From an uncultured Bdellovibrionales bacterium (lineage in GTDB: Bacteria > Patescibacteriota > Minisyncoccia > Moranbacterales > UBA1568), in the NCBI GenBank assembly GCA_964530135.1, contig CAZGXN010000002.1:3308-67307 (forward strand): a stretch of 64,000 nt of DNA, given 5' to 3'. The notes beneath the pieces were generated by a model that made no database searches, was not told the origin of the DNA, and saw only the letters and a list, made by a program, of their open reading frames with translations. How positions within the stretch are numbered: position 1 is the first letter of the stretch; each line of letters opens with the position of its first letter. Made by a program: the position numbers and the translations under genes. Positions 9,939-39,126 of this stretch are shown one piece after another.

Positions 9939-11477
9939 TCATTTCCCAGGCCCCCAACGATAAACCGTGATATCTCCGCGGACACTCGCGTTACTGACAC
10001 GCTCCCAATGCTTTTCAACATACTGTTCAACCTCTGAAGAGATATAATCCTCATCATTGCCAGAATAGATAAACCATCCGGATGGATATTCGGCTTCAAT
10101 TTTCTGAACATCAGCGAGAGAAAGTTTTTCCTTTGAGAGTTCGCCTCCAAAATCAAAAACTTTCACCTGAGCCCCACTCCAATAGTAATTGCGAAAATTG
10201 CGCGTAATGAGAGCATCTCCGGCCAGGCGCTCTTTCTTGAAGTATGTGAACACTTTCCGGTAATTTGGATTTCCGCCCGAAGAGGTTTCATGGTACGTAT
10301 TGTTCTCCTCAAAGAAATAACCAAGGTTCGGAACAAGGATAAAGAGTGCGATTCCGGACAGTATCCCTGTGCGCCAATTCCAGCGTTCTCCGATCGCCTT
10401 CTGCAAAAATTCAAACACCCCTATGATACCCGTCGCCGCTAAGATCATTCCGAATGATTGGATGAAAAATATATACTGCGGCCCGACATTCCGGCGCCAG
10501 AGAAAGATTGCCATAAGAAGCGGCACAAAATAAGCGAGGATGAGATACCAGACGGCTGAACGATACTCTGTTCTCCGAAAGAGAAAAGCGGTGCCAAAAA
10601 CAATAAGCCCGGCACCGATGACTGGTGTCGCAAAATCAGCAAGTGCGTGCGTCAAATATCCGAAGTGGTCATCAAAGAAAATAAGTCCCTGTGTAAAAGA
10701 CCGTATCGTCTTGGGGAAGAAGAGGAATGCAACCACTACTGCCCCTGCACCAAACAGAGTGGAATACCCGTACCGATTTTTCCATTCGCCCGTTGCGCGA
10801 TAACGGAGATATGTCTGAAGTAAGACATATGCGCCGAAAGAAATCAGGAGATGTGCTGTCATCTGATGCACCGAAAGAGACAACACTGTGACCGCTCCCG
10901 CCAATACGAGATACGGTACATGAATACCAAAGCGACGTGAAGCATCTTTCAAAAATGTGATGCTGCCCTCATAGGTGCGCTCATAGGCTGCATAGAGCGC
11001 GGTCGCAGCAGTGAGGTAGAGCGGAAAGAACATGGCATACATGCGGAGGCGACGGCTAAAGATGATCGCTGAAATGGAGAGGGCACACATGAGCGCGGCC
11101 ACCAGACCAATATCACGCCTCTGAGTAAAAATCCAAGCAGACCAAAAAACAATCAGGATTGCAAAGATTCCCCAGGCCACACTCACGGAACGCGCGACTG
11201 CCTCAGTCGGAGGCAGGATACTAAAGAGCGCGGCCACCTGAAACTTGTACGGTGCAGCGCGTTCATCCCGAAGCACATTCTCATTCACACTACTCGGCAT
11301 AGTGTAATTAAAATCCCAGGCTTGCCACTCCCCAGTCTGATGATAACCATACGCTGAATTGATATCGAGGAATTCGTCCGCAACAAAGGAATTCTCACCA
11401 AGATTATAAAAACGAAGTACAACCCCAACCAGAAGGATAATCACAAGTATCTGAATCGTTCGTTTCCAATCAAGCAT
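9939..11477 (-). CDS. GT-C fold membrane glycosyltransferase, ArnT/PMT (GT39/GT83)-like
   Basis: 'RFYNLGENSFVADEF' first-loop DE motif region typical of ArnT/PMT_2 family, many TM helices, soluble C-terminal domain; start set at the internal ATG to avoid overlapping the upstream gene (alternative 11513; ORF-track 11648). Confidence 0.75.
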   Translation of the reverse strand: MLDWKRTIQILVIILLVGVVLRFYNLGENSFVADEFLDINSAYGYHQTGEWQAWDFNYTMPSSVNENVLRDERAAPYKFQVAALFSILPPTEAVARSVSVAWGIFAILIVFWSAWIFTQRRDIGLVAALMCALSISAIIFSRRLRMYAMFFPLYLTAATALYAAYERTYEGSITFLKDASRRFGIHVPYLVLAGAVTVLSLSVHQMTAHLLISFGAYVLLQTYLRYRATGEWKNRYGYSTLFGAGAVVVAFLFFPKTIRSFTQGLIFFDDHFGYLTHALADFATPVIGAGLIVFGTAFLFRRTEYRSAVWYLILAYFVPLLMAIFLWRRNVGPQYIFFIQSFGMILAATGIIGVFEFLQKAIGERWNWRTGILSGIALFILVPNLGYFFEENNTYHETSSGGNPNYRKVFTYFKKERLAGDALITRNFRNYYWSGAQVKVFDFGGELSKEKLSLADVQKIEAEYPSGWFIYSGNDEDYISSEVEQYVEKHWERVSNASVRGDITVYRWGPGK

Positions 11478-13376: not shown

Positions 13377-15620
13377 ATGGTCAAACGCTTTTTTACCCCC
13401 TTTCTCTCGGGACTCCTCGCCCTCAACGCGCTTCTGTTTGTTGTACAACAATTCAAATGGTTTCCCCAGGCAAAGATTACCGAAACTGACGACATCTTTT
13501 ACTTTTTTTTCCTCGTTCTTGGCATCGTGTCCATCGGTGCTGTTCTCTATTTCACGCCCCTTCACCACATCCGCACCATCCTCGAAAAACTCCTAGTTAT
13601 TTTTTTCCCAACCGAACTGATTCTTATCTTCGGCCTGTCACAGTCAAAGAATTTTCACTATGTCTTCTTCATGGCCATTGGTGCCTATATTCTCCTTGCC
13701 GGTATGGTCGCTATTCATACGGCCATAACCCGTGAGACAGGCGAACGACCTCTTCTGCGGCATACATTTCGATCCGTTTTACCCTGGGGACAGGAACAAG
13801 GATTATCGACTCTCATTTTGGTTACCCTCCTCACGGGAATTTTTTTCTCATTCGGCGTCTCTGGACTGACTCGCTTTGCCGCAGTTGATGAACCCCTCTG
13901 GACTGATGGACGGATTCCAAAATATTGGCACAATATCGAAGAACATGACTGGCGTGGCACACGAATCAGTGACAAGCCCGGCATCACCGTGGCTCTCGCC
14001 GCTGGCCCGGGAATGTGGTTTATCAATACGAAAGACTACAAGGCGATCCGGTCGGCCAGTATCCTCAAAACCAATCACCTCAATATCGAAACCCTGTACT
14101 GGGCCTTTCGACTCCCCCTCCTCATCGTTATTACACTCTTCTTACCCTTCTTTTATATCTTTATAGAGCGGCTATTGAGCAAACGCGAAGCGCTCATTAC
14201 CTACGCCGCCATCACCCTTTCACCCATTCTCATCGGGATGAGCAAGATTATTAATCCGGATGCGCTCCTCTGGATCTTCGTCCCGCAAGCGCTATTCGCA
14301 TATCTTGTTTTTCTAAAACGCCGCCAATACCGCTACCTCATCCTCGCAGGTATCTTGGTCGGACTCGCACTCCTTACAAAATATGTTGCCAACTTTGTGA
14401 TCGTCTTCATGGTTGGACTCATCTTCCTGGAATGGCTGTATCAAGATACAACCCGCCAGTTATCACTCGCACACTATCTCAAAAGGTCTCTCTCCGAGCT
14501 TTCCATCCTTATCTTTACCGCCCTGGCCACTTTTTATGTTCTATTTCCGGCTGTCTGGATAAAGCCAGAAAAACTTATTACTTCGACTCTGTACAGCCAG
14601 GCCTTTGAAAAATTTGCGCCACTGTTTATTGTTCTCCTCATTTTCATCGGGATCGATCTGATGTGGAATCGCACCCGTGCGCTCGCATTTCTCCTCAGAC
14701 TCTTCGAACGCTACCGTGAGTGGCTCGGCTGGGGCATTGCCAGTCTCAGTATCACAGCGATCGCCTTTACCCTCATCAACAGCTGGCGGGGTATGCCTTG
14801 GTATGACTTCATGACACTCCTCGCTTCACCCAAGACAATTGCCGGCCACACTGATCTCATCGGTATTTTTCTTTCCAACTTCTACCCCCTTGTCTTTGGC
14901 TTCACGCCCATTATGCTGATCGGTATGCTCGCCGGCATCAGTCTCATATTCCGTAAAGCATTTTTCCAACAGGATACGGCTCGACTCGCATTCTACTGCA
15001 TTCTCTTTATCCTGCTCTACTATGTTGGAGCGACCGGCAACGGTGTCGCGATGATTGTCCGTTACCAGATCATCCTCTTCCCTATCGCGGCTCTCTTGGC
15101 CGCCCTTGGTCTCCTCGCGCTCTTTGACCGTTTCATCCGCACCCGGAGAGAACCGTTCTTTGCACTCTTTCTCGGTGTGATTATCCTCACGGGCATCGGG
15201 ACGCTCCGTATGACGCCCTTCCCACTCTCATATGCCTCAGGATTGCTACCGGTCCGATACCATACCGATGTAAAAGATATGGGTCCTGGGAGTTATGAAG
15301 CCGCACAGTGGCTCAATCAACAACCGAATGCTGAAAATCTTACTATCTGGACCGATAAGGACGGTGTCTGTAAGTTCTTCATCGGCCAGTGTCGTCGGGG
15401 TTTCGGTAACTATGCGACTCGGCGAGCTGAAGGAATTGACTATATTGTCGTCTCATCCGGACGAGAAAGCCGGACGACAAAGATGATCACAGCTCAGGTA
15501 AACAGCGGTGTGCCAGCTATCCGCTATGACCAGTACTATCAAAAGGATACTCCGGCGCACGAAATCCTGATCAATGGCCGGATCAATCACTTTGTAAAGA
15601 TATTTCGCTTTGCCGAGTAA
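13377..15620 (+). CDS. large polytopic membrane protein, putative GT-C-like glycosyltransferase
   Basis: 747 aa, more than 12 hydrophobic segments, 'FAAVDEPLW' acidic loop motif; function inferred only from architecture and context. Confidence 0.55.
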   Translation: MVKRFFTPFLSGLLALNALLFVVQQFKWFPQAKITETDDIFYFFFLVLGIVSIGAVLYFTPLHHIRTILEKLLVIFFPTELILIFGLSQSKNFHYVFFMAIGAYILLAGMVAIHTAITRETGERPLLRHTFRSVLPWGQEQGLSTLILVTLLTGIFFSFGVSGLTRFAAVDEPLWTDGRIPKYWHNIEEHDWRGTRISDKPGITVALAAGPGMWFINTKDYKAIRSASILKTNHLNIETLYWAFRLPLLIVITLFLPFFYIFIERLLSKREALITYAAITLSPILIGMSKIINPDALLWIFVPQALFAYLVFLKRRQYRYLILAGILVGLALLTKYVANFVIVFMVGLIFLEWLYQDTTRQLSLAHYLKRSLSELSILIFTALATFYVLFPAVWIKPEKLITSTLYSQAFEKFAPLFIVLLIFIGIDLMWNRTRALAFLLRLFERYREWLGWGIASLSITAIAFTLINSWRGMPWYDFMTLLASPKTIAGHTDLIGIFLSNFYPLVFGFTPIMLIGMLAGISLIFRKAFFQQDTARLAFYCILFILLYYVGATGNGVAMIVRYQIILFPIAALLAALGLLALFDRFIRTRREPFFALFLGVIILTGIGTLRMTPFPLSYASGLLPVRYHTDVKDMGPGSYEAAQWLNQQPNAENLTIWTDKDGVCKFFIGQCRRGFGNYATRRAEGIDYIVVSSGRESRTTKMITAQVNSGVPAIRYDQYYQKDTPAHEILINGRINHFVKIFRFAE

Positions 15621-16594
15621 TGCGTTGTTGATGGTCCTGAGTCTGTGGTACGGCGCAGGATGAGGTAGTTTGGTAATGCAAGAAAAGAAATGAGCATCTG
15701 GAGAAGCCGCGAGCACAAGGCAGCGGTTACTGCGAGTTCCGACGAAACACCGACGAGTCCGAAAAAAAAGACATAGGCCCATTCCTTCACGCCAATATTG
15801 TTAATAGAAATCGGGATATTGGCCACGAGCGTCGCTGCAAAGATAGCGCTCCCAAACGCCAGTAGTGAAATATCTGCTCCAAGGCTAGAAAAAAGTATAA
15901 AGTTACTGCCACCGATACCAACGAGGGTAAAGAGTGATGCCCAAAGTATGGTTTTCATGTATATGTTTCTGCTGATGAAGGGAACAAAATCCCCCAGAAG
16001 AAGCGTTGGTTTTTTCCAGGGTAACAATTCAAAAAGGGATACTGCGAGTGTATACAATCGCTCCACTACAAACAGTGCGAGAAGCATCGCGAGAGCCACT
16101 GAAAGCGTGATGGCAGCAAATAGTATGAATACCGGACGATCAAGGAGGATTTGCCAGGGCAACAGCGTAATTCCAATTCCAGAAAAAAGAAAGAGTGCCA
16201 AGAGGCCAGTGATGCGGTCAAACAAGACCACTGCAAAGGCACGGGATCGCTCACCGACTTTGGACATCCAAAATACTCGATACGCATCACCGCCAACAGT
16301 TGATGGAAGGAAGTTGTTTATGAGAGCCCCAGTGAGATAAGCAAAGACCCCTTCCTGTATCGAAAACTTAAACCCCTGAATGCGAGCGAGATACTGCCAC
16401 TTGGCGGAAGAAATGATATTTCCCAGTATCTGGACACCCATGTAAGCAAAAATCAGTGGTCCAGAAGCATTGGCCAAGATATGACCAACCACTGGCCAAT
16501 CAACTTTTTGGATAAGCCAGTATACGAGCACGGCACTCACGGCGATTTTCAGTACTGTTTTCCAATATTGCATATCTCTCACTATAGCAATCAT
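15587..16594 (-). CDS. LPG-synthase-TM / flippase-like domain (UPF0104) membrane protein
   Basis: 'NNFLPSTVGGDAYRVFWMSK' motif characteristic of the lysylphosphatidylglycerol-synthase TM / flippase-like family, about 8 TM helices; convergent 34-bp overlap with the upstream gene's 3' end. Confidence 0.6.
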   Translation of the reverse strand: MIAIVRDMQYWKTVLKIAVSAVLVYWLIQKVDWPVVGHILANASGPLIFAYMGVQILGNIISSAKWQYLARIQGFKFSIQEGVFAYLTGALINNFLPSTVGGDAYRVFWMSKVGERSRAFAVVLFDRITGLLALFLFSGIGITLLPWQILLDRPVFILFAAITLSVALAMLLALFVVERLYTLAVSLFELLPWKKPTLLLGDFVPFISRNIYMKTILWASLFTLVGIGGSNFILFSSLGADISLLAFGSAIFAATLVANIPISINNIGVKEWAYVFFFGLVGVSSELAVTAALCSRLLQMLISFLALPNYLILRRTTDSGPSTTHYSAKRNIFTK

Positions 16595-16603
16595 TCAGAC
16601 GAG

Positions 16604-16630
16604 TCGCTATTTTTTAGCGATTTTTTCTTT
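16604..16630 (+). terminator. hairpin plus T-tract (terminator-like) at the start of repeat copy 1
   Basis: TCGCTA-ttttt-TAGCGA followed by TTTTTTCTTTT. Confidence 0.45.
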
Positions 16631-16695
16631 TACCGAAGCCACATTTCCATATTTTCTCAGTATTGACTTATTCATAAATATGTGCTAATATGTGT
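16621..16695 (+). repeat. direct repeat copy 1 (about 70 bp, T-tract plus promoter module)
   Basis: ttttcttttaccgaagccacatttccatRttttctcagtattgacttattcata...gtgcta shared with 17894-17968 at roughly 90% identity. Confidence 0.85.
16663..16691 (+). promoter_or_regulatory. near-consensus sigma70-type promoter P1 (TTGACT, 17 bp spacer, TGc, TAATAT)
   Basis: -35 TTGACT 16663-16668, 17-nt spacer, extended -10 TGcTAATAT ending 16691; about 140-nt leader to the 16839 gene. Confidence 0.6.
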
Positions 16696-16838
16696 TGTCG
16701 CGTGCCTAGTGTGCGTGACAAGGGGTCTTTGTGCCTATCGTTGGTACTTTGACAATTTCAATCAGATATCCTGAAAAATTCGCCTCTTGTTTGTAGGGGG
16801 AGTAATGAGTTTTTCGGTGAATCTATACATCTGGAGAA

Positions 16839-17831
16839 ATGAAAATGAGCAGTTTGAGTACCTACCTGGGTCGGAAGAATTTCCACTTGATGGTCCGCGT
16901 GTTTTCCGTGACCGAGGCCGGCGTTGCGCAGCAATGCAAGGCAACACGCGAACTCGTGAACCGGGCGCTCGGCCTGAGATTCCACGGCCGCCCCGTGTTC
17001 TCCGGCATCAGCATCGTGGTACCCAGTTCGCCGGTGTATGTCAACTACGATTGCGGCCTCACGGCAGCAGCACTCGTGGATGAGTTCTGCGGCATGCACA
17101 AGGCCCCGTGCCCCATCCATGTCCGGGCTTACATGACGGGCGATCAATTCGTCGACGTATTCAACGAAGAGATCAACCATCTGGCTCGCGCGAAAGGACA
17201 CTACCTCCTGTCGATCTCGCCTGCCGTCCGGCATTACTGCAATGACACCGAGATGGCCAAGGTCATCACGGCCTGCCACAAGGGTGCCAAGATTGGCGGG
17301 CTCATCCTGCCGCAAGTCGAGGGCGTCGCCTGTGGTTTCGTTGGCAACATGTTCAGCTTCCTGGATATCGACGCAGCCATCCAAGTCGGCGGCTACCAAC
17401 ACTGCGCCCGCGACATTCGTCGAGATGACGAAACCTTCGTTGCGGTGCGCCACCCGACCGAAAAGGAGATCTCGATTCCGCTGAAAGCAGTCGAGGAAAC
17501 CCCGCTTATCGCTGCGATGCTGATCAAGCTTCGCGGGATACTCGAGACGGGTGAAATATCCGAGGAGGCCGTCCCCTTCATCGCGCCGATCCTTCCCGAA
17601 TCTTGGGAGGCTTGGCAACTGCCAGACCAAATTACTGGGTATGTGGCCTACCACGAGCTGAAGGTACGGTCGAAGTGGATCAGGCAGCGCGCCTTCCTCA
17701 GCATGCGTGGCCTCGCCTTCGATGACGTACGCCAGGCTGTCATGCCCGGTTACCGTCTGGAGGACTACGCCAGCGACAGCCGTTACGAACACCTCGTTTC
17801 GGCCATCAAGGCGACGGGATACCCCTTGTAG
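16839..17831 (+). CDS. hypothetical Cys-rich protein (330 aa) on the GC-rich island
   Basis: GGAG 9 nt upstream of ATG; about 60% GC versus about 48-50% in flanks; 8 Cys residues; protein-like composition, whereas the antisense ORF 16758..17792 is R/D/G/A-biased. Confidence 0.6.
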   Translation: MKMSSLSTYLGRKNFHLMVRVFSVTEAGVAQQCKATRELVNRALGLRFHGRPVFSGISIVVPSSPVYVNYDCGLTAAALVDEFCGMHKAPCPIHVRAYMTGDQFVDVFNEEINHLARAKGHYLLSISPAVRHYCNDTEMAKVITACHKGAKIGGLILPQVEGVACGFVGNMFSFLDIDAAIQVGGYQHCARDIRRDDETFVAVRHPTEKEISIPLKAVEETPLIAAMLIKLRGILETGEISEEAVPFIAPILPESWEAWQLPDQITGYVAYHELKVRSKWIRQRAFLSMRGLAFDDVRQAVMPGYRLEDYASDSRYEHLVSAIKATGYPL

Positions 17832-17863
17832 CCAAAGACGGCGGGGTAACCAGAGGCTCTGAA

Positions 17864-17902
17864 GCCGGCCAAGTGTAACAACACAGGGCCGGCTTTTTCT
17901 TT
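17864..17902 (+). terminator. intrinsic terminator after the 16839 gene
   Basis: GCCGGCC...GGCCGGC stem (7 bp) followed by TTTTTCTTTT; begins repeat copy 2. Confidence 0.7.
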
Positions 17903-17968
17903 TACCGAAGCCACATTTCCATGTTTTCTCAGTATTGACTTATTCATAGAAAGGTGCTATTATATAAA
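17894..17968 (+). repeat. direct repeat copy 2 (T-tract plus promoter module)
   Basis: see copy 1. Confidence 0.85.
17935..17963 (+). promoter_or_regulatory. near-consensus sigma70-type promoter P2 (TTGACT, 17 bp spacer, TGc, TATTAT)
   Basis: -35 TTGACT 17935-17940, 17-nt spacer, TGcTATTAT ending 17963. Confidence 0.6.
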
Positions 17969-18002
17969 GTTGCGTAAAAAATGCGCGACGAATTCACAGT
18001 CC

Positions 18003-18017
18003 GCTACCAATGGTAGC
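18003..18017 (+). promoter_or_regulatory. perfect 7-1-7 palindrome GCTACCA-a-TGGTAGC in the leader of the 18039 gene (candidate operator)
   Basis: read directly from sequence; lies between P2 and the SD. Confidence 0.35.
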
Positions 18018-18038
18018 TTTTCCAATCAGGAGATCTCA

Positions 18039-18530
18039 ATGAAAACTGGAACCTGCACTTACCAGGTGCGCACCTGTGTCCATTTCTTCGGCATCTACAA
18101 CGATTCGAAAAACAATATTGTGGTCGAAGACCGTGACCCGAACAAGGTCGCCATCCCCGACAAAGCCTACGCCTTTGTCTTTTATGACGAAGTGGTGGCC
18201 GAGGTGAAGCTCGAAATTGGCACGGTCGCACTCAAGAACGAGGCCACCGTCGATGGTCGTTATGTTGGTTGGCTGAATAAATCGTCCGTCCACTACTGTG
18301 GCGGCAGACTCTTCACCGTCGCCGAGGGCGAACGATTCTTCCGTGAACACGCCAGCGCCTTCTACGGCACGGGCGATCCTATGGACGGCGAAGACAACCT
18401 TTTCGACCTCATCCGTACGGGCAAGCGGCCTGGAGTGACCCACATCCTCCAGCAGCGCAATGGCGACATCACCCCCTTTTGCGAAGGCGTGGATGTGATC
18501 GTCCCCCTTCCCGAGCCCGCCACGGCCTGA
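18039..18530 (+). CDS. hypothetical protein (163 aa) on the GC-rich island
   Basis: AGGAG 6 nt upstream of ATG; the ORF-track TTG start at 17970 was rejected because it would begin inside the promoter; no recognisable domain. Confidence 0.55.
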   Translation: MKTGTCTYQVRTCVHFFGIYNDSKNNIVVEDRDPNKVAIPDKAYAFVFYDEVVAEVKLEIGTVALKNEATVDGRYVGWLNKSSVHYCGGRLFTVAEGERFFREHASAFYGTGDPMDGEDNLFDLIRTGKRPGVTHILQQRNGDITPFCEGVDVIVPLPEPATA

Positions 18531-18565
18531 ACCAATACCTGATACTCTTGTCAGGTAAATTGAAA

Positions 18566-18600
18566 GCCAGTGAACGATAACTACGTTCCCTGGCTTTTTT
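18566..18600 (+). terminator. intrinsic terminator after the 18039 gene
   Basis: 11-bp stem GCCAGTGAACG/CGTTCCCTGGC (1 mismatch), 7-nt loop, TTTTTT. Confidence 0.7.
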
Positions 18601-18614
18601 CTTTTCTCTCGAAA

Positions 18615-19781
18615 TTATTTCTTGATATTTTCTCCGAGAATGTTTCGAAAATTCTGCGCCACTTGATTCCAGCTGCGCTTTTCCGCGCGGCGACGGCTTT
18701 CTGTGCCGAAGAGAACTGCTTCCTCAGGATTATTTGCGATTCGAGCCAAGGCCGTCGCAAAGGATTCTGTATTTTCGGGCTGAACGAAAAGGCCGTTTGC
18801 ACCATCAGTCACGAGCTCGGCCATCCCGCCCGTACCGGAAACGATGAGCGGCAGACCCGAGGCAAGCGCTTCGAGTGCAGCATTACTCATCCCCTCGTTC
18901 TTTGACGGGAGAACGAACACATGCGAACGCTGATAGTATCCGGCGAGCTGGTCGTGCTCGACCCGGCCGATAAATTTCACTTGATCTGAAATGCCTAGCG
19001 CCTTAACGCGCTCTTCGAGCATCGGTTTCTGCTCCCCTTCACCGACGAGGTGGAGCTCGATCGGCTTGGCGGTTTTTTTGGTCGCGACTGCAAAGGCCTC
19101 GATGAGATGATGGATGCCTTTCCGTGGCGTGAGCCGTGAGGTCGAAAGGAAAACCGTCACATCTGTGGCTCGCTTTTTTGGGTCGGGACGGAATGTTTCG
19201 GTATCGACGCCGTTCTGAATCGTCTGCATCTCTTGGCGAAGAGCGGTCTTTCTCGCCAGTTCAGTCAGCCCAGCGCTATTCGGTATAACCGCTTCTGCCC
19301 GACGCCACAAGAAACGCACGAGTGGCCTGGCAAAAAGATAAAAAGTGTCATACTTCTCACTGAATCCCGGGACGTCCGCCCCGCGGAGCGATACGACATA
19401 TGGCACGCCGTAGACTAGCTTCACCAGATACGCCAGAAATCCACAGGGTACAGTGAAAAATGCCAGCGTTACATCGAACGGCTGTTTCTTCGTCTCGAGA
19501 CGCAAGAAACGCCAAAGGAAAAAGGCCGCCTGAAGAGAATAAATAAGAATATCCTTGAGGGATTGTGAATGGAGTTTTTCGGGGTTTTTCCCGATTGGCA
19601 AGCGGTGCACATACACCTCTCCACCGACCCGGATATGCTCTCTGACCCCACCGACGGCAGCAGTCACCAAATGAACCTCGATACTCGAATCCTTGGCCCA
19701 TTCGCGGAGAATGGCCTCGGTCGCGACACTCGCCCCGCCACCCAATGGCGGATATTCATAGTTAAGAAAGAGGACCTTCAT
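18615..19781 (-). CDS. GT4-family glycosyltransferase
   Basis: 'VLFLNYEYPPLGGGASVA', 'NEGMSNAALEALASGLPLIVSGTGGMAELV' (E-x7-E); start at first ATG (ORF-track 19790 is TTG). Confidence 0.85.
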   Translation of the reverse strand: MKVLFLNYEYPPLGGGASVATEAILREWAKDSSIEVHLVTAAVGGVREHIRVGGEVYVHRLPIGKNPEKLHSQSLKDILIYSLQAAFFLWRFLRLETKKQPFDVTLAFFTVPCGFLAYLVKLVYGVPYVVSLRGADVPGFSEKYDTFYLFARPLVRFLWRRAEAVIPNSAGLTELARKTALRQEMQTIQNGVDTETFRPDPKKRATDVTVFLSTSRLTPRKGIHHLIEAFAVATKKTAKPIELHLVGEGEQKPMLEERVKALGISDQVKFIGRVEHDQLAGYYQRSHVFVLPSKNEGMSNAALEALASGLPLIVSGTGGMAELVTDGANGLFVQPENTESFATALARIANNPEEAVLFGTESRRRAEKRSWNQVAQNFRNILGENIKK

Positions 19782-19796
19782 CGTTTTCAATCAGCG

Positions 19797-24656: not shown

Positions 24657-25040
24657 ATGAATTTCGATCATTTGCAGCTCTACCAGATTGTCATCCTCAT
24701 CATCTCCAGCCTGATGCTCTATCAGGGGGCGAGTAACTTCTTCAAAGGTAAAGATCACCAAACCGTCCTGAAACTCGGTGTCCGCGTCGTCGTCTGGGGC
24801 GGCATGGCGCTGATCGCACTCTTTCCTGACTTCAGCAATGTCCTCGCCGAACTCATCGGCATCCAGGGCAACATCAATGCCGTCATCCTGACCGGATTCA
24901 TTCTAGTCTTCCTTATGATCTTCAAGCTCCTCTCCGCCATCGAACACCTCGAACAACAGATCACGCTGCTCACGAGAAAAGACTCGCTCCACCATCTCAC
25001 TGAAACAACCAAGACCGATATCAATAATGATGCCTCATAA
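24657..25040 (+). CDS. small 3-4 TM membrane protein, DUF2304-like (commonly found next to Dpm1-like GT2)
   Basis: 127 aa, hydrophobic helices, conserved position after the GT2 pair. Confidence 0.5.
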   Translation: MNFDHLQLYQIVILIISSLMLYQGASNFFKGKDHQTVLKLGVRVVVWGGMALIALFPDFSNVLAELIGIQGNINAVILTGFILVFLMIFKLLSAIEHLEQQITLLTRKDSLHHLTETTKTDINNDAS

Positions 25041-31371: not shown

Positions 31372-32474
31372 TGGCTGGTAAGAAAAAAATTCTCCACCTC
31401 ATCCAGTCGCTCAATAACGGCGGGTGTGAGAATATGCTCCTCCGTACCCTGCCACTCCTCGGTGATTTCGAGCATACGATCATCACCCTAAAGGAGCCTG
31501 GCGAACTGGCACCGAAATTTTCTACTCTTGACATCACCATCATTCCCGCCCACTGCGATGGTTTTACTGATATCACTGGCATTTTCCGTCTGCGTCGGCT
31601 CATATCGGAGGTGAAGCCCGATATCATTCTCACCTATCTCTTCCATGCCGACATGCTCGGCCGCCTCGCGCTCTTTGGCACGACCAAGGCACCAATCATC
31701 CCCTTTCTCCGGACCACCTACAATGACTCTCGCTACTGGATCGCTCGAGCCGCGGAATGGTTGACGAAACCACTCGTTCAGCGCTATCTCGCTAACTCAG
31801 AAGCAGTAAAAGATTTTTATGTGCGCAAGCTTGGCGTATCAGCCAATCAGATCACCGTTATCCCAAACGGTATCGACACTGATTTCTTTGACTGTCTTGC
31901 GCCCGACCCAATACTCCGCGATTCGATCGGTATCAGTCCAGACGATTTCGTTATCATTTGCGTCGCCAATCTTCATCCCAACAAAGGACATCACTATCTC
32001 CTCGAGGCCTTCGAATCATCGTTTTCAAAGAATCCCACCATAAAGCTCCTCATCGTCGGCGATGGCACCGAACGCAAGAATCTTGAGCGACAGATCAAAG
32101 ATTACCGATCGAAAAACGGCGTTTTCTTCCTTGGTCGCCGTACCGATATCCCACAACTTCTCAAGGTTTCCGATTGTTTCGTCCTCCCCACTCTCTTCGA
32201 GGGCATGTCGAATGCGATTATGGAAGCGATGGCTGCTAGCCTCCCCGTCATCACGACCGATATCCCTGAGAACCGTGAACTCATACGAGCTGGCGAAACA
32301 GGTATCCTCGTCCCACAAAAAGATTCGCGTGCCATCGTCGAGGCAATCGAGCGGCTTCTCAGTGATCCGGAAAAATTCGAAACACTAGGAAAAAATTCCA
32401 AACACAACATCCGCGAACGATTCGGCATCAAAGTCGTCATCTCGAAACTGAATCAGTTTTTCAAGAGCCTATAA
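31368..32474 (+). CDS. GT4-family glycosyltransferase
   Basis: 'FEGMSNAIMEAMAASLPVITTDIPENRELI'; ATGATG overlap with the upstream stop. Confidence 0.85.
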   Translation: MMAGKKKILHLIQSLNNGGCENMLLRTLPLLGDFEHTIITLKEPGELAPKFSTLDITIIPAHCDGFTDITGIFRLRRLISEVKPDIILTYLFHADMLGRLALFGTTKAPIIPFLRTTYNDSRYWIARAAEWLTKPLVQRYLANSEAVKDFYVRKLGVSANQITVIPNGIDTDFFDCLAPDPILRDSIGISPDDFVIICVANLHPNKGHHYLLEAFESSFSKNPTIKLLIVGDGTERKNLERQIKDYRSKNGVFFLGRRTDIPQLLKVSDCFVLPTLFEGMSNAIMEAMAASLPVITTDIPENRELIRAGETGILVPQKDSRAIVEAIERLLSDPEKFETLGKNSKHNIRERFGIKVVISKLNQFFKSL

Positions 32475-33281
32475 AACGACTGCCGGAAAATGTTTTTGAA
32501 ATTGATCAAGAGAGATCCACTCAGCGCTTCGTAGGGTGATTTTTCTTCGCACAAACCAGACAACATCTTCTGAAATGAGCTTTCCAAAAAGCAAATCGAC
32601 AAGATAGAGAAAGTTTCGGGCACTTATCGCATTAACCGAGAAAAAGTCCGTCACACTTTTAAAAGAAAAAGTAAATCTCGAAGAAGAAAGGTTTCCACCT
32701 CCTTTTTTAATTCTATGAACGGTCAGTGGTTCTTGAAGACAATAAATTTTTCCTTCTTTCAAAAGGGTCTTTTTCTCAAATAATTCATCTGCAAGTGTAT
32801 GATTTATATCATACCGAAATCCCTTATTCCGAAAAACGAGTGAGGTATGATCGACGAAATTCGGGTACGGTGATTTTTTGTTAAGAATTAAAACTTCTTT
32901 ACTTTCAAAATAGTAGAATGTGCTTGTGCCACAAGCGATACTGTCATCATTATTTTGCAAAAAATCGATTTGCTTTGCTATTTTTTCCGGAAGCCAGATG
33001 TCATCGTGATCCTGAATTGCCACATATTCCCCACCCGCCCTATCCAAAAGAAAATTCAGTCCGGCATACGGACCAACATTCTTCTTGCCTTCAAAGAGGG
33101 TAATTCTGGGATCGTTCAGACTTTTTATGATTTCCACTGTTTTATCATCCGAAGCGTTATCCAGTACGAGAATCTCCAAACTCGAATATGTCTGATTGAG
33201 ACAACTCCGCAGTGTCTTTTCAATATATCGTTCCGCGTTATAGGAAACGATCAAGACTGAAACAAGGTTGCTTTTTTTCAC
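32469..33281 (-). CDS. GT2 glycosyltransferase (AT-rich cassette)
   Basis: 'VSVLIVSYNAERYI', 'LVLDNASDDKT', 'DHDD'. Confidence 0.8.
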   Translation of the reverse strand: MKKSNLVSVLIVSYNAERYIEKTLRSCLNQTYSSLEILVLDNASDDKTVEIIKSLNDPRITLFEGKKNVGPYAGLNFLLDRAGGEYVAIQDHDDIWLPEKIAKQIDFLQNNDDSIACGTSTFYYFESKEVLILNKKSPYPNFVDHTSLVFRNKGFRYDINHTLADELFEKKTLLKEGKIYCLQEPLTVHRIKKGGGNLSSSRFTFSFKSVTDFFSVNAISARNFLYLVDLLFGKLISEDVVWFVRRKITLRSAEWISLDQFQKHFPAVVL

Positions 33282-33287
33282 AATACT

Positions 33288-34286
33288 TCAGTTACTGAAA
33301 TAAAGCCTCTTCAAGTATTGATTGACGCGATTCGGCAATAAAAGGCGGATAAATAAGAGAGAATTCAAAGAAAGATCTCTGGAAAGATTTAAAGGGAATT
33401 TTTTCGCGTAAGAAAAGAATTCATTCCAAGCCTCCTTTTTTTGAGCATTTTCAAGATAAAATATGGTATTAAAGTAACGAGTCTTCCCCTTCATATATTG
33501 GATTGCCTTCTGCACATCTTGATTATTCGAAAATTCTTTTGAATAATCATCCAAAATCATAAGAAGTTGCTTTGACACCTTTACCGTCGAAGCTGAATTG
33601 TTAGTTGTGTGTTTTCTATATTTGAGTAAAACGTGATCAATGAAGTATATTTTATTTTTTGTCGAAAGGCGAAAATTAAAATCCCAATCAGAGGGGAGAA
33701 ATATTTTTTCATCGGAATCGAGACTTCTTGGGTATCCTGATATGGATAAAACTTCCTTTTTTATCATTATCTGGCTATATGTAGAAAAAAGTAATGTTTT
33801 AGCATATAGATACTCTGCCGGATCTATATTGCTATTTCTGTAGGTTTTCGTATCGAGCTTCTTATACATGTTATCAATAGTCGTATCACCAACATCATTG
33901 ATAATTTGAAAGTTGCAATATACCATTCCAAGATCCGGAAATTTTTCAAAAATCAACATCTTCTCAGCGAGATTCTCATTACAAAAAACATCATCACCCT
34001 CCAAGAAGGCCAGATATTCACCTTTCGAAGTATCAATAAGAAATTTCCAATTCGGAATAAGCCCCTTGTTTGTCTCATTTCTAAAAACCTTGATCCGACT
34101 GTCTTTCTGCGCGTATCCTTGGATAATCTCCCAACTCTTGTCAGACGAACAGTCATCCACAACCAAAAGCTCCCAATTTTGATATGTTTGGGAAATCACG
34201 CTTTCTATCGTTTCACCAATAAACTTCTCGTGGTTATAAACGGGAACGATTACTGAAATCAACGGTTGGTCGTTCTGATTACTCAT
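33288..34286 (-). CDS. GT2 glycosyltransferase (AT-rich cassette)
   Basis: 'ISVIVPVYNHEKFI', 'VVDDCSSDKS', 'EGDD'. Confidence 0.8.
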   Translation of the reverse strand: MSNQNDQPLISVIVPVYNHEKFIGETIESVISQTYQNWELLVVDDCSSDKSWEIIQGYAQKDSRIKVFRNETNKGLIPNWKFLIDTSKGEYLAFLEGDDVFCNENLAEKMLIFEKFPDLGMVYCNFQIINDVGDTTIDNMYKKLDTKTYRNSNIDPAEYLYAKTLLFSTYSQIMIKKEVLSISGYPRSLDSDEKIFLPSDWDFNFRLSTKNKIYFIDHVLLKYRKHTTNNSASTVKVSKQLLMILDDYSKEFSNNQDVQKAIQYMKGKTRYFNTIFYLENAQKKEAWNEFFSYAKKFPLNLSRDLSLNSLLFIRLLLPNRVNQYLKRLYFSN

Positions 34287-35031
34287 GATTTTTACAAATA
34301 CACACCAGATTCGGAGAAAGAATTTTTGGGTTGATTGTACCGATACCGAACCGGATAGCTTTTATGGTGCTGTTCACTAAAAGCTGCACACACCTGATTA
34401 TTACATCGCTTACAAAAAATCTAAGATAATTTATAATTCCTTTACCATAAATATTTATAGGAATTTTCTCCGAGTAAAGTTTTATATTTTTAAATCCAGA
34501 AGCCTCGCAAAGTTGGTAGAGAGATCTCTCAGTAAAAAAATTCACATGAGTAACATCCCAAAATGGCCCGACATAGAAAATATTCTGCACACTCGGCGTT
34601 ACAATGACTAATACACCATCTGTAGTAAGTGATTCCTTAATTTTTTGAAGAAAAATAACCGCCTCATCCCTTGAAATATGTTCGATAACATGGGAGAGGA
34701 ACACCAGGGAATATACCCCCTTTTTCGAATCAAGGAATAAGTTTGTATTTTCAACATGCTCGCATGGTAACCTTTGCTTCTGCGCCTCTATAATGAGATC
34801 CTCAGCAATATCTACTCCGTAACAATTTTCATACCCAAACAACTTGAGCGCTCTGAGCGTCCTCCCATTTCCGACTCCTATATCAAGGATGTGGGCAGTT
34901 TTTTCTTTCGGAAAAAACGAATTAAAATTCTTAATCAGATATCTCTGATACTGCTTTTCTTCATCCTGATTCAACAAAACTTGGTTGTAGCTATTCTGTA
35001 AATAGTTGTTATAAAATTGCTTGGAGTTCAT
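34279..35031 (-). CDS. class I SAM-dependent methyltransferase (AT-rich cassette)
   Basis: motif I 'ILDIGVGNGR', 'VFLSHVIEHI'. Confidence 0.75.
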   Translation of the reverse strand: MNSKQFYNNYLQNSYNQVLLNQDEEKQYQRYLIKNFNSFFPKEKTAHILDIGVGNGRTLRALKLFGYENCYGVDIAEDLIIEAQKQRLPCEHVENTNLFLDSKKGVYSLVFLSHVIEHISRDEAVIFLQKIKESLTTDGVLVIVTPSVQNIFYVGPFWDVTHVNFFTERSLYQLCEASGFKNIKLYSEKIPINIYGKGIINYLRFFVSDVIIRCVQLLVNSTIKAIRFGIGTINPKILSPNLVCICKNHE

Positions 35032-36347
35032 AAACTTGCAAGATATTTGTTGCAGAAATATTTATTCAGTATAGCATTTGCAAAGAAAATTGTGGCATAT
35101 GCAGCAACTACTAGGTACAGTGTAAGTAAGCCAAGAACCCCCATTGTAATCAGAAAGGAAAAATACACAACTACAATAAAAAACCAAGCAAGAAAAAGAT
35201 TTCTTACAATCTTCTGTTTTCCACCAGAAATTACAATAAATCCAAAAAGACTTCCGTAAAGATTAAACAGCGAATATACACTAAAAAACAATATGATTAG
35301 ATAATCAGTTGGGTATTCCTTACCATAAAGCCCTAGACCTAAGAAGATAATTAGGGCTGACAAAATAAACCATCCTATGCCTAGAATGGGAAAGATCTTA
35401 TCTATTTTTTTTGCAATTTCAGCTTTATTCTCAGCCTGGGCAACTGCTGGAAAATATACTGACGAAAAAAAAGCGATGAATTGGCCAGTAGCGAGAGCGG
35501 AAAGAGTGTAATAAGCATTATAAAAACCCAGTTCCCTCGAGCCAATAAACGTATTAATAAGAATACTTGTTCCGCTTTGGATCAAATAGCCAGAAATCAC
35601 ACCAAGAAAGATAACGGAAGAAAACAGGAACAATTCTTTTAAGATGTCTCTATCAAAAAAAAGTCCAAAATATGACCCTACTTTAACAAAAAAAACTATC
35701 AGTACCAATACTAATGCACATACATTCAATATTATAAACCATGCAAGAGAGAAAGTTTCTTTAAACGAAAAGTACAGCACAATAATCGAAAGCAACAAAA
35801 ATATTCCTTGGAAAATCCGAACTGTATTGACGAATATAAATTGATTCAGAAGTTTTAAATAATTTTCAAGCGCAACCGCAAGCGCGTTTGTCATTGAAAA
35901 GAGTAGGGCAAAAACAAGAAACAATGTCGGTAAACCAAGCAATTCAGCAACAAGATCACCGAAAATTAAGAATATAAAAGACCAAAAAATTGAATTGAGA
36001 AAGAAAAATATAATATATGTGGATAGTATATTTTTCCTTCTTTCCTCATCTCCCTTGGCCGCAAGACGAATAATGGTGGTTTCAAGTCCGAATGAAAGAA
36101 AAATTGTCAGAAAGGAGTAAAGAGCCACATATACGGCATATCTCCCATACTCAACCGGACCGAGAAACCTTCCAGCGAGTACGGAAACTACCAACAATAG
36201 CAAAGAGGATATTGCTCCACCGAAAAAAGAAATGCCAAGATTCCCGAGGAATTTCCGCATCTCTTCCCCCATCTCGTGCCCAAAAATCCGGAGATGAATA
36301 ATTTCCGCGATACGATAGAATGTGTTTTTTATAGTTTCAAAAATCAT
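35028..36347 (-). CDS. Wzx-type oligosaccharide flippase (second copy, AT-rich cassette)
   Basis: 'GRFLGPVEYGRYAVYVALYSF' paralogous to the 7886 flippase motif, about 12 TM; start uncertain (36347 or 36272; ORF-track 36464 overlaps the divergent neighbour). Confidence 0.7.
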   Translation of the reverse strand: MIFETIKNTFYRIAEIIHLRIFGHEMGEEMRKFLGNLGISFFGGAISSLLLLVVSVLAGRFLGPVEYGRYAVYVALYSFLTIFLSFGLETTIIRLAAKGDEERRKNILSTYIIFFFLNSIFWSFIFLIFGDLVAELLGLPTLFLVFALLFSMTNALAVALENYLKLLNQFIFVNTVRIFQGIFLLLSIIVLYFSFKETFSLAWFIILNVCALVLVLIVFFVKVGSYFGLFFDRDILKELFLFSSVIFLGVISGYLIQSGTSILINTFIGSRELGFYNAYYTLSALATGQFIAFFSSVYFPAVAQAENKAEIAKKIDKIFPILGIGWFILSALIIFLGLGLYGKEYPTDYLIILFFSVYSLFNLYGSLFGFIVISGGKQKIVRNLFLAWFFIVVVYFSFLITMGVLGLLTLYLVVAAYATIFFANAILNKYFCNKYLASL

Positions 36348-38546: not shown

Positions 38547-38903
38547 CTAATTGTCTTCGCCGTCGGCCACATCGAGGAACCAGTTGATCGCGCCGATGAG
38601 CAGCGAGAGTACCAACGCGCCGACGATGGCGTGGATAAAGGTGTCCACTTCAAATCCCTTCACTACTCCGCCGAGGAGCCAGAGGAGGAATCCGTTGATG
38701 ACGAGAGTGAAGAGTCCGAACGTCAGCAGATTGATCGGCAGCGTCAGGAGAACAAGCACCGGCTTTATGGTAAATCCGATCAGTCCCCAGAGAAGAGCCA
38801 ACACAAGCGCGACCTTCCAACTCGCGACACTGATCCCTGGCACATAGTGAGCAACGGCCCAAAAAGCTCCAGCACTGAGTGCCCAACGCAGAATAAGTTT
38901 CAT
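38547..38903 (-). CDS. DUF360 / phage-holin-4_2-like small membrane protein
   Basis: 'ILRWALSAGAFWAVAHYVPGI' N-terminal motif typical of DUF360, 3-4 TM. Confidence 0.55.
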   Translation of the reverse strand: MKLILRWALSAGAFWAVAHYVPGISVASWKVALVLALLWGLIGFTIKPVLVLLTLPINLLTFGLFTLVINGFLLWLLGGVVKGFEVDTFIHAIVGALVLSLLIGAINWFLDVADGEDN

Positions 38904-39126
38904 AAAAAAATTGTCAAGAATTAAAAGACTAAGGAACAAATAAGAAACCGCACTCTAAAAACCCTCTACCTACTACGCTTCTATTCTACACCTAAAAAAG
39001 CTTCTCTTGATAGTACCCCCTCCAAGCACGGCTCAGCAGCAAAATACGCTTGTAACGCTTAACAGGCGATCGCTTCGTATAGGTTACAAAGCCTAATACC
39101 CGTACCTTTCCCCGATCCAGTTATGT

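Follow-up and report, generated by a model that had tools for sequence, protein, structure and literature searches.

The 64-kb stretch of DNA analyzed here, referred to in its entirety as the window, is chromosomal and carries, at positions 16595 to 18614, a segment with two plus-strand genes that lies between a minus-strand LPG_synthase_TM family gene and a minus-strand GT4 glycosyltransferase gene. This segment, referred to below as the slot, and its two genes, gene 1 (cargo family A) and gene 2 (cargo family B), are the subject of this work. All coordinates are positions in the window, and L numbers (L001 and so on) designate the related loci with which it was compared. A gene together with its own signals is called a cassette, and the recurring signals are called the chassis. 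Comparison of the flanking GT4 protein with reference genomes places the locus in "Candidatus Moranbacteria" (Moraniibacteriota), within the candidate phyla radiation (CPR)/Patescibacteria group, and we take the Bdellovibrionales labels on some third-party annotation (TPA) bins with the same locus to be errors. The slot and its two flanks contain the following features.

15587 to 16594, minus strand: host flank, LPG_synthase_TM family gene (Pfam PF03706; E value, 2.8e-36), with its start codon at 16594
16595 to 16621, plus strand: left edge of the insert, directly after the LPG_synthase_TM start codon, containing a hairpin and then a T-run
16601 to 16623, plus strand: left-edge hairpin (-10.5 kcal/mol; z, -4.2), which precedes the first cassette promoter and lies 7 nt from the LPG_synthase start codon
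16622 to 16703, plus strand: chassis repeat, copy 1, with the gene 1 promoter (-35 box TTGACT at 16663-16668; extended -10 box TGCTAATAT ending at 16691)
16697 to 16844, plus strand: gene 1 leader of about 148 nt, with a 5' stem-loop at 16697-16719 (-12.4 kcal/mol) and a three-helix domain
16845 to 17831, plus strand: gene 1, family A, 328 amino acids (330 if read from 16839), an orphan protein with a predicted GT-A fold and no DxD motif
17861 to 17906, plus strand: gene 1 intrinsic terminator, a GCCGGCC...GGCCGGC hairpin and then UUUUUCUUUU (-24.6 kcal/mol; z, -5.1)
17894 to 17975, plus strand: chassis repeat, copy 2, with the gene 2 promoter (-35 box TTGACT at 17935-17940; extended -10 box TGCTATTAT ending at 17963)
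17969 to 18038, plus strand: gene 2 leader, with a stem-loop at 17969-17989 (-10.2 kcal/mol; z, -2.8) and AGGAG at 18028-18032, 6 nt from the start codon
18039 to 18530, plus strand: gene 2, family B, 163 amino acids, belonging to a superfamily, as yet unnamed, of small proteins (about 130 to 170 amino acids)
18540 to 18614, plus strand: slot-terminal double hairpin (18540-18553 and 18562-18598) and U-run (-20.3 kcal/mol; z, -4.1)
18615 to 19790, minus strand: host flank, GT4 glycosyltransferase gene (Pfam matches), with its stop codon at 18615-18617

An earlier reading of this DNA, made from the sequence only, had described the two genes as GC rich relative to their flanks, and tests of GC content, third-codon-position GC content (GC3), codon usage, and tetranucleotide composition all bore this out. 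The GC content is 0.594 for gene 1 and 0.569 for gene 2, compared with 0.461, 0.497, and 0.536 for the neighboring LPG_synthase_TM, UDP-glucose dehydrogenase (UGDH), and GT4 genes, and the most GC-rich 1-kb segment of the entire 64 kb (0.598) starts at 16901. The excess resides in the third codon positions: GC3 is 0.754 in gene 1 and 0.713 in gene 2, against a host mean of 0.534 (standard deviation, 0.077; n = 53 open reading frames [ORFs]). The deviation from the genomic background is significant, with codon usage distances from the host gene set at z values of 6.7 (gene 1) and 5.0 (gene 2) that were reached by none of 2,000 size-matched host chunks. Apart from a low-GC block at about 31.5 to 36.5 kb, the segment also has the largest tetranucleotide distance in the window (z up to 3.9 with that block left out of the background).

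Both ORFs of the sequence-only reading were found, with the start of gene 1 amended from 16839 to 16845; the eight cysteines that it had counted in gene 1 are also there. ATG 16845 is most likely the start codon, because it is preceded at a distance of 8 nt by GGAG (16833-16836) and because the homologs begin with MSSL, whereas ATG 16839 lies just 2 nt from this Shine-Dalgarno (SD) sequence. Substitutions relative to orthologs fall mainly in the third codon position (42, 38, and 155 at positions one, two, and three in gene 1 and 48, 43, and 89 in gene 2), and the homologs are called on the plus strand; both plus-strand frames are therefore real genes on which purifying selection acts. An antisense ORF of slightly greater length (16758-17792), produced by a greedy ORF caller, is ruled out by the same codon-position and homolog evidence.

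The promoter scan and the hairpin energies confirmed the previous proposal that each gene has its own promoter, SD sequence, and terminator, and they support the view that each gene is an autonomous transcription unit. The two full-consensus extended sigma70 promoters (TTGACT-17-TAATAT for gene 1 and TTGACT-17-TATTAT for gene 2), both with a TG extension, are carried by the two copies of an 82-nt direct repeat (16622-16703 and 17894-17975) that are 88% identical. A strict pattern for such promoters, TTGAC[AT]-N13-15-TGnTAnnAT, occurs twice in the window, at the two cassette promoters, where 0.07 occurrences are expected, and slot DNA of the related loci contains 11 occurrences in 19.6 kb, compared with none in 149.6 kb of host flank. 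Translation signals set the cassettes apart as well, with GGAG (16833-16836) and AGGAG (18028-18032) preceding genes 1 and 2; only 5 of the 53 host ORFs have an SD-like motif upstream, in agreement with the claim that the neighboring host genes mostly lack one. The double hairpin at the 3' end of the slot serves as the terminator of gene 2, opposite the convergent GT4 gene. Each of the island's three hairpins is followed by the same TTTTTTCTTTT tract.

When spacers of the related slots were aligned, a common grammar became apparent. Its 5' part consists of the T-run of the preceding terminator, a stretch containing AAGCC, TTGAC(A/T), and 17 nt that include a TGCTATAAT-like sequence; this is followed by a stem-loop at position +1 (GTCACG…CGTGAC or GTTGC…GCAAC), a leader specific to the cargo family, the SD sequence, and the ORF, and the unit ends in a GCCGACC…GGTCGGC hairpin and then TTTTTCTTTTA. 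As a signature, the chassis can be written as TTGACW-N13-15-TGNTANNAT, a +1 hairpin, a GC3 excess, and a GCCGRCC...GGYCGGC-T-run terminator. The consensus promoter and the +1 stem-loop were uniform in 17 of the 26 cassette upstream regions scanned, terminator modules of the type found at 17861-17906 occurred inside slots only, and both the chassis and the deviating composition were absent from the host genes sampled. A 19-nt core of the slot-terminal hairpin, TGAACGATAACTACGTTCC, is identical in most of the occupied slots examined (the window lineage, L001, L004, L010, L011, L015, and L031) and is found in none of the empty slots; it is unchanged although the adjacent GT4 proteins are only 50 to 70% identical. 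A metagenome scan with this core returned one true additional locus, L031. A further match, in L030, looks like a chance occurrence (GC content, 0.59; no related genes).

Comparison with related genomes showed that the slot is hypervariable and that the number, order, and kind of cassettes differ among relatives. In five of them (L014, L017, L020, L022, and L025), it is empty: the GT4 and LPG_synthase genes are co-oriented and abut or overlap in L014, L017, L022, and L025 and are 174 nt apart in L020. The occupied slots of other relatives hold between one and five cassettes, which come from eight or more orphan families, as listed below.

Window: A (gene 1) and B (gene 2)
L001: A only
L004 and L005: B and C (287 to 288 amino acids)
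L012 and L010 (overlapping views): B, D (271 amino acids), an EamA transporter, and another ORF … and A
L015 and L032: B-like and A-like (36 to 37% and 28 to 30% identity), in reversed order
L016: an MntA/HepT toxin-antitoxin pair in addition to five opposite-strand ORFs
L023: three small, apparently paralogous ORFs
L031: a C-type cassette adjoined by an extra PMT gene

GC3 is 0.64 to 0.83 in most slot ORFs, among them all those of types A, B, C, and D, in hosts with a GC content of 0.44 to 0.53; a host-like composition was seen for the EamA gene, several small ORFs of L016 and L023, and the toxin-antitoxin pair. The extra gene of L031 (L031:2053-3906) is a low-GC (0.39) PMT/PMT_2 glycosyltransferase gene that separates the C-type cassette from GT4, which means that GT-C genes, too, are acquired by the slot region. 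A matched pair is formed by the occupied L001 and the empty L017, which share about 90% nucleotide identity in both flanks. On the left, the LPG_synthase start codon marks the exact end of homology; on the right, identity drops to about 50% over the last 60 to 75 nt or so of GT4 (L001:11047-11119), and either the imported tract includes the 3' end of GT4 or the constraint on this end changed after translational coupling was lost. Such presence/absence polymorphism between close relatives means that the two genes are not universal core genes in a conserved syntenic position, and the empty slots, together with the composition, bear out the earlier suggestion that the segment is foreign and was acquired horizontally. 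Inspection of the junctions revealed no obvious target-site duplications, and no recombinase was found in the slots examined or among the 20 window proteins scanned with Pfam. Two side observations concern the slot in individual data sets. The contigs of metagenome-assembled genome (MAG) GCA_964491155.1 break at the slot, with L002 ending just past a cassette and L021 carrying the GT4 side, and sequencing run ERR3094292 (L006 and L003) contains two related Moranbacteria populations with slots of the A-plus-B and A-only types. Both fit strain-level heterogeneity at the slot.

The predicted structure of gene 1 has the alpha/beta/alpha GT-A fold of nucleotide-diphospho-sugar transferases. Its best fold matches are glycosyltransferases, with 205 to 224 residues aligned compared with about 165 for nucleotidyltransferases (NTases), and its matches in BFVD include a TET-associated glycosyltransferase and phage GT-A proteins. 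The Gly-rich GxGxR(x)nK loop that follows β1 in NTases is not conserved in alignment A4 by inspection, gene 1 reading RVFSVTEAGVAQQ there. No transmembrane segments, signal peptide, or secretion-system neighborhood were found, and the C-terminal region is conserved and rich in Trp and Arg/Lys. Only five relatives were detected among 5.8 billion sequences, and a word-indexed search with a widened profile returned the same five proteins and no more; all those with a visible genomic context lie in this slot, as does every family C and D gene for which the context can be seen. Residues that are invariant in family A, even in members of 25 to 30% identity, include D71-C72-G73, G101-D102, N109, E219-E220, A249-P250-I251-x-P253, K275, K279, and R282. 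From the fold model, gene 1 probably encodes a very unusual sugar-transferring enzyme. Of the two possibilities raised by the sequence-only reading, a surface-modification accessory would be the better description of gene 1, given the fold of its model. Family C matches the family A profile weakly but colinearly (E value, 7e-4; probability, 26%). A shared GT-A ancestry of all cargo types of about 270 to 300 amino acids was considered and set aside, this A-C match being the only, weak signal.

Gene 2 has four close homologs, and an exhaustive HMMER search recovered 56 representatives at an E value of ≤1e-3 among 1.84e9 sequences, most of them 125 to 170 amino acids long. They share the conserved core RDPxK..VPxxAxxFxFFD … NxS..YYxGG … R.GN..PF. 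None of the 45 superfamily members scanned had a Pfam or PHROG match, gene 2 itself had none in NCBIfam or PADLOC, and the superfamily profile retrieved only noise from PDB sequences; the statement that neither protein of the pair has a recognizable domain therefore holds in Pfam, PHROGs, NCBIfam, and PADLOC alike. Some distant relatives occur as solitary genes (L037:2391-2789, L035:8001-8450, and L034:1827-2213), and one cluster of the genomes that contain them is named Patescibacteria by NCBI. GC3 is raised in all three genes, and those of L035 and L037 have a TTGAC-17-TAnnAT promoter, an SD sequence, and a terminator of their own. In L037, the GC3 of the gene is 0.57, whereas that of the host genes is 0.12 to 0.21 and that of rpsB (ribosomal protein S2) and tsf (EF-Ts) among them is about 0.15, which argues against codon selection for high expression. 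These sequence features argue for horizontal movement of the gene 2-type unit.

Two types of structured leader precede the cassette genes. The leader of gene 1 has a minimum free energy of -46.3 kcal/mol (z, -3.5), and its outer helix pairs with bases that run into the SD sequence. In four orthologous leaders (window, L001, L010, and L011), 92.9% of the cells of a three-helix structure are paired, compared with 37 to 58% in slid controls, and six pairs show compensatory changes, compared with 2.4 ± 1.2 in shuffles. Because the comparison covers four sequences, one of which supplied the structure, these values are no more than suggestive; in the ortholog of L013, the inner domain of the leader is missing. 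Nothing in the whole window reached the Rfam gathering threshold, and a permissive threshold over the island gave chance-level snoRNA matches. The gene 1 leader is thereby a candidate for a new cis-regulatory RNA. A second leader type (L004:6830-6938, L005:10620-10738, L012:5760-5862, L015 reverse complement 10217-10330, and L016 reverse complement upstream of 5565) comprises two hairpins, one at +1 and one with arms that vary from locus to locus, as well as conserved TTTACCAACC-like blocks, and it shows modest covariation. It serves the unrelated cargo genes C and D, a 173-amino-acid ORF, and an A-like gene. Because it is common to cassettes with unrelated ORFs, it seems to belong to the chassis and not to the gene. 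The GTTGC...GCAAC start of the gene 2 leader, in turn, recurs in the gene 2 orthologs of L004, L005, L012, and L015.

The surroundings of the slot are those of a surface glycan locus. A glycan region of about 40 kb, followed by PheRS, TyrRS, SecDF, PBP, RecJ, and DnaJ genes, encodes a Wzx-like flippase, three PMT/PMT_2 GT-C enzymes, UGDH, an epimerase/dehydratase, and GT2 enzymes, together with AsnB, methyltransferases, and a Bac_transf protein. A number of side observations were made in this region. The window contains a second, AT-rich island at 32469-36300 (GC content of 0.33 to 0.38, compared with 0.49), which encodes two GT2 glycosyltransferases and a methyltransferase and deviates more strongly in tetranucleotide composition than any other part of the window (z up to 4.5). 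This GT2/GT2/methyltransferase block resembles the horizontally acquired variable parts that are classical for polysaccharide loci. A 130-amino-acid Phage_holin_4_2 protein (PF04020; E value, 5e-29) is encoded on the minus strand at 38547-38939, adjoining the Bac_transf initiating sugar transferase gene, and no other phage genes were noted near it. Many host genes (for example, those at 24657, 28342, 41171-, 46585-, and 62474-) have ...TAGCCT or ...ACCT right before the start codon, and in several the ATG is preceded within about 10 nt by a -10-like box, which hints at leaderless or non-SD initiation in the host lineage.

On balance, we consider it probable, if well short of certain, that segment 16595-18614 represents the current content of a hypervariable slot, namely, two independent, horizontally exchanged single-gene cassettes, the first of which alters the surface glycan. 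In our best reading, the cassettes are moron-like and would serve to diversify surface glycan chemistry. They would enter and leave the slot by recombination; given that no recombinase was seen, the probable route is DNA uptake followed by homologous recombination via the conserved flanks and the chassis modules. Gene 1 would encode a cytoplasmic transferase, strongly transcribed as a unit of its own and possibly gated in its translation by the structured leader. The enzyme might attach a sugar (or sugar-phosphate) to a lipid-linked or soluble intermediate of the neighboring UGDH/GT2/GT4/PMT-type pathway, or alter one already there, the outcome being a strain-distinctive surface glycan. Gene 2 would be a separate passenger and not an obligate partner of gene 1.

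The main rival, which we judge rather unlikely, is a neutral integration hotspot whose cassettes are unrelated to the glycan locus. In that case, gene 1 would be a GT-A enzyme acting on another target, as a glycosylating effector or toxin directed at the host cell of the CPR bacterium, a modifier of phage DNA or protein, or a sugar nucleotidyltransferase, and gene 2 would be an unrelated mobile small protein. Several results weigh against a role in glycan diversification, some of them directly in favor of this rival. The slot accepts non-glycan cargo: the MntA (Polbeta nucleotidyltransferase)/HepT pair of L016 (L016:9754-10571) has a host-like GC content and lies on the strand opposite to the cassettes, and the three ORFs of L023 (L023:962-2718; about 130 to 200 amino acids; paralogs by eye) have no Pfam or PADLOC match and constitute a further orphan cargo family. 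Distant relatives of gene 2 stand alone outside glycan loci: that of L035 lies between holA and rpsT, that of L037 has small genes around it, and other non-glycan contexts also occur. Because of this non-glycan cargo and these outside relatives, the location in the slot may reflect a permissive hotspot and not function. The gene 1 model is of moderate confidence (pLDDT of 62.8, and below 50 in the C-terminal third), and no DxD or equivalent acidic motif is present at the C-terminal end of β4, which spans residues 122 to 126 (YLLSI) and is followed by S127-P128-A129, a placement that was taken from the secondary structure of the model and not from a residue-level superposition; S127 is invariant across family A, including the members that are 25 to 30% identical. 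Gene 1 had no significant sequence match in Pfam, NCBIfam, PHROGs, or PADLOC, its family profile matched no PDB sequence at an E value of ≤10, and hhalign against a GT2 profile built from the window's own GT2 proteins gave a probability of 0.2%. Profile comparison found no significant relation of D or of a 281-amino-acid ORF to A or C, and Pfam returned no significant match for ten other cargo proteins. Searches for a phage or plasmid origin were negative throughout: neither a donor organism nor a vector emerged from viral contigs, which were queried with protein as well as with terminator DNA, or from tblastn comparisons with INPHARED phage records and PLSDB plasmids. The BFVD matches to a TET-associated glycosyltransferase and to phage GT-A proteins also suit a target other than the surface glycan. 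What speaks against the hotspot is the confinement of all A, C, and D genes with a visible context to this single glycan-locus slot, the EamA/TPT-type transporter in one of the fuller arrays, which fits sugar or metabolite handling, and three properties of gene 1, namely, the preference of its fold matches for glycosyltransferases over NTases, the absent GxGxR loop, and the lack of a signal peptide or a secretion-system neighborhood.

Other explanations fare less well. The sequence-only reading had proposed an undescribed two-gene system, possibly a toxin or defense pair. The proteins do come from undescribed families, but they do not form a two-gene system: a terminator of -24.6 kcal/mol and a second promoter separate the genes, and their homologs do not co-occur as a pair, gene 1 being found alone in L001, gene 2 with unrelated C or D cargo in L004, L005, and L012, distant relatives of gene 2 being solitary among housekeeping genes in L035 and L037, and the order being reversed in L015/L032. 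It is true that genes 1 and 2 are adjacent in the window, that diverged A-like and B-like genes (28 to 37% identity) are adjacent again in L015/L032, and that a bona fide toxin-antitoxin pair occupies the same slot in L016. No defense or toxin-antitoxin model of PADLOC, Pfam, or NCBIfam matched gene 1, gene 2, or other GC-rich cargo, PADLOC returned nothing for eight other cargo proteins (the L016 pair being the sole exception in the family libraries), and a 328-amino-acid protein with an enzyme-like fold is not a typical small toxin. Because of the separate transcription units, varying partners, solitary relatives, and lack of matching models, we reject a two-component toxin-antitoxin or antiphage system as highly improbable. 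Somewhat less improbable, but still doubtful, is that the genes are native, vertically inherited, and lineage specific and that their GC3, promoters, and SD sequences reflect very high expression. Homologs were found only in Moranbacteria slots, with no external donor, and orthologs at 50 to 80% identity keep the signature, which could reflect selection and not recent transfer. The presence/absence polymorphism between genomes with flanks about 90% identical, the differing cargo of relatives, the low GC3 of the ribosomal protein S2 and EF-Ts genes in L037 next to a cassette gene at 0.57, and the perfect conservation of the 19-nt terminator core beside divergent GT4 proteins all tell against it. 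Finally, the compositional contrast and the one NCBI MAG with contigs breaking at the slot (L002 and L021) might suggest that a GC-rich foreign fragment was misjoined into a CPR contig. Because the same arrangement, with the same junctions, was assembled independently in at least four samples and by different assemblers, such a chimera is very unlikely indeed, the more so as the same slot is occupied in many related genomes with breakpoints precisely at gene boundaries.

Going beyond exchange at one slot, we advance only as a tentative possibility that the cassettes belong to a distinct, wider CPR gene-cassette system in which orphan genes on a conserved, host-atypical chassis move as units with no linked recombinase. 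Such units might be stacked in tandem at the surface-glycan hotspot of Moranbacteria and occur singly elsewhere, in one case in a genome cluster named Patescibacteria; structured leaders would be common to unrelated ORFs, with that of gene 1 as a new cis-regulatory RNA, and the cassettes would be a reservoir that supplies new GT-A-like enzymes and small proteins to diversify the surface or host interaction. CPR/Patescibacteria are ultrasmall, mostly uncultured episymbionts whose cell surface mediates both attachment to the host and exposure to phages; the acquisition of new functions by their reduced genomes is poorly understood. The locus described here offers a concrete route, in which ready-to-express single-gene modules are swapped at one envelope-glycan slot, and the cargo belongs to protein families for which billions of sequences yield almost no relatives; one of these proteins is an enzyme with a predicted GT-A fold and no canonical DxD motif. 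If the chassis is truly a mobile unit, it would constitute a new type of cassette system and provide a searchable signature for accessory genes in CPR metagenomes; its parts (the promoter, the 5' stabilizer-like hairpin, and the terminator) could also serve future CPR genetics. If the cassettes are only local, strain-variable glycan genes, the locus would be a well-documented but ordinary case of surface-polysaccharide locus variability.

We found no literature describing this type of locus in CPR bacteria, but it can be compared with several known systems. With respect to gene 1, the GT-A glycosyltransferases considered were the GT78 mannosylglycerate synthase (2bo4), the GT2 enzyme PcManGT (6yv7), BcsA (4p00), DPMS (5mlz), and GpgS (7p5l). 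The gene 1 model shares the GT-A fold with enzymes of the CAZy GT2/Pfam PF00535 type but differs from them in having no DxD motif, no detectable sequence homology, and no transmembrane segments, and it differs from nucleotidyltransferases of the IspD/GlmU/CMP-NeuAc synthetase type in lacking the GxGxR(x)nK loop. As in the cassette arrays of integrons, the slots contain tandem single-gene units of unrelated function whose content and order vary and which have a hairpin at each 3' end. Unlike in integrons, no IntI integrase was found in the slots or among the 20 window proteins scanned, own promoters are present (17 of 26 upstream regions), whereas integron cassettes are mostly promoterless, and the 3' hairpins are followed by U-runs and resemble terminators, attC cores not having been searched for systematically.

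Two other systems come closer. The variable regions of O-antigen, capsule, and cell wall polysaccharide loci likewise lie within a glycan locus between conserved bounding genes, have an atypical GC content, and vary between close relatives; at least one cargo protein here has a predicted glycosyltransferase fold, and the same window contains a block of the classical low-GC GT2/GT2/methyltransferase kind at 32.4 to 36.3 kb. In contrast to such regions, the cargo of the slot is GC rich and not AT rich, is encoded on the opposite strand with a promoter and a terminator for each gene, consists of orphan proteins without a GT family signature, and includes non-glycan genes. The concept of phage morons, which reportedly goes back to Hendrix and colleagues, describes single ORFs with their own promoter and intrinsic terminator and a deviating composition that are transcribed apart from the surrounding operon, and the cassettes of the slot, too, are inserted between genes that are adjacent in relatives (L014, L017, L022, and L025, as well as the matched L001/L017 pair). 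Here, the carrier is a CPR chromosome with glycan and housekeeping genes as flanks and not a prophage, the slot genes have no match in viral contigs, phage records, or PHROGs, and several cassettes are stacked in tandem at one fixed slot on a nearly uniform chassis. Taken together, phage morons and surface-polysaccharide variable regions are the closest known concepts, and the slot differs from both.

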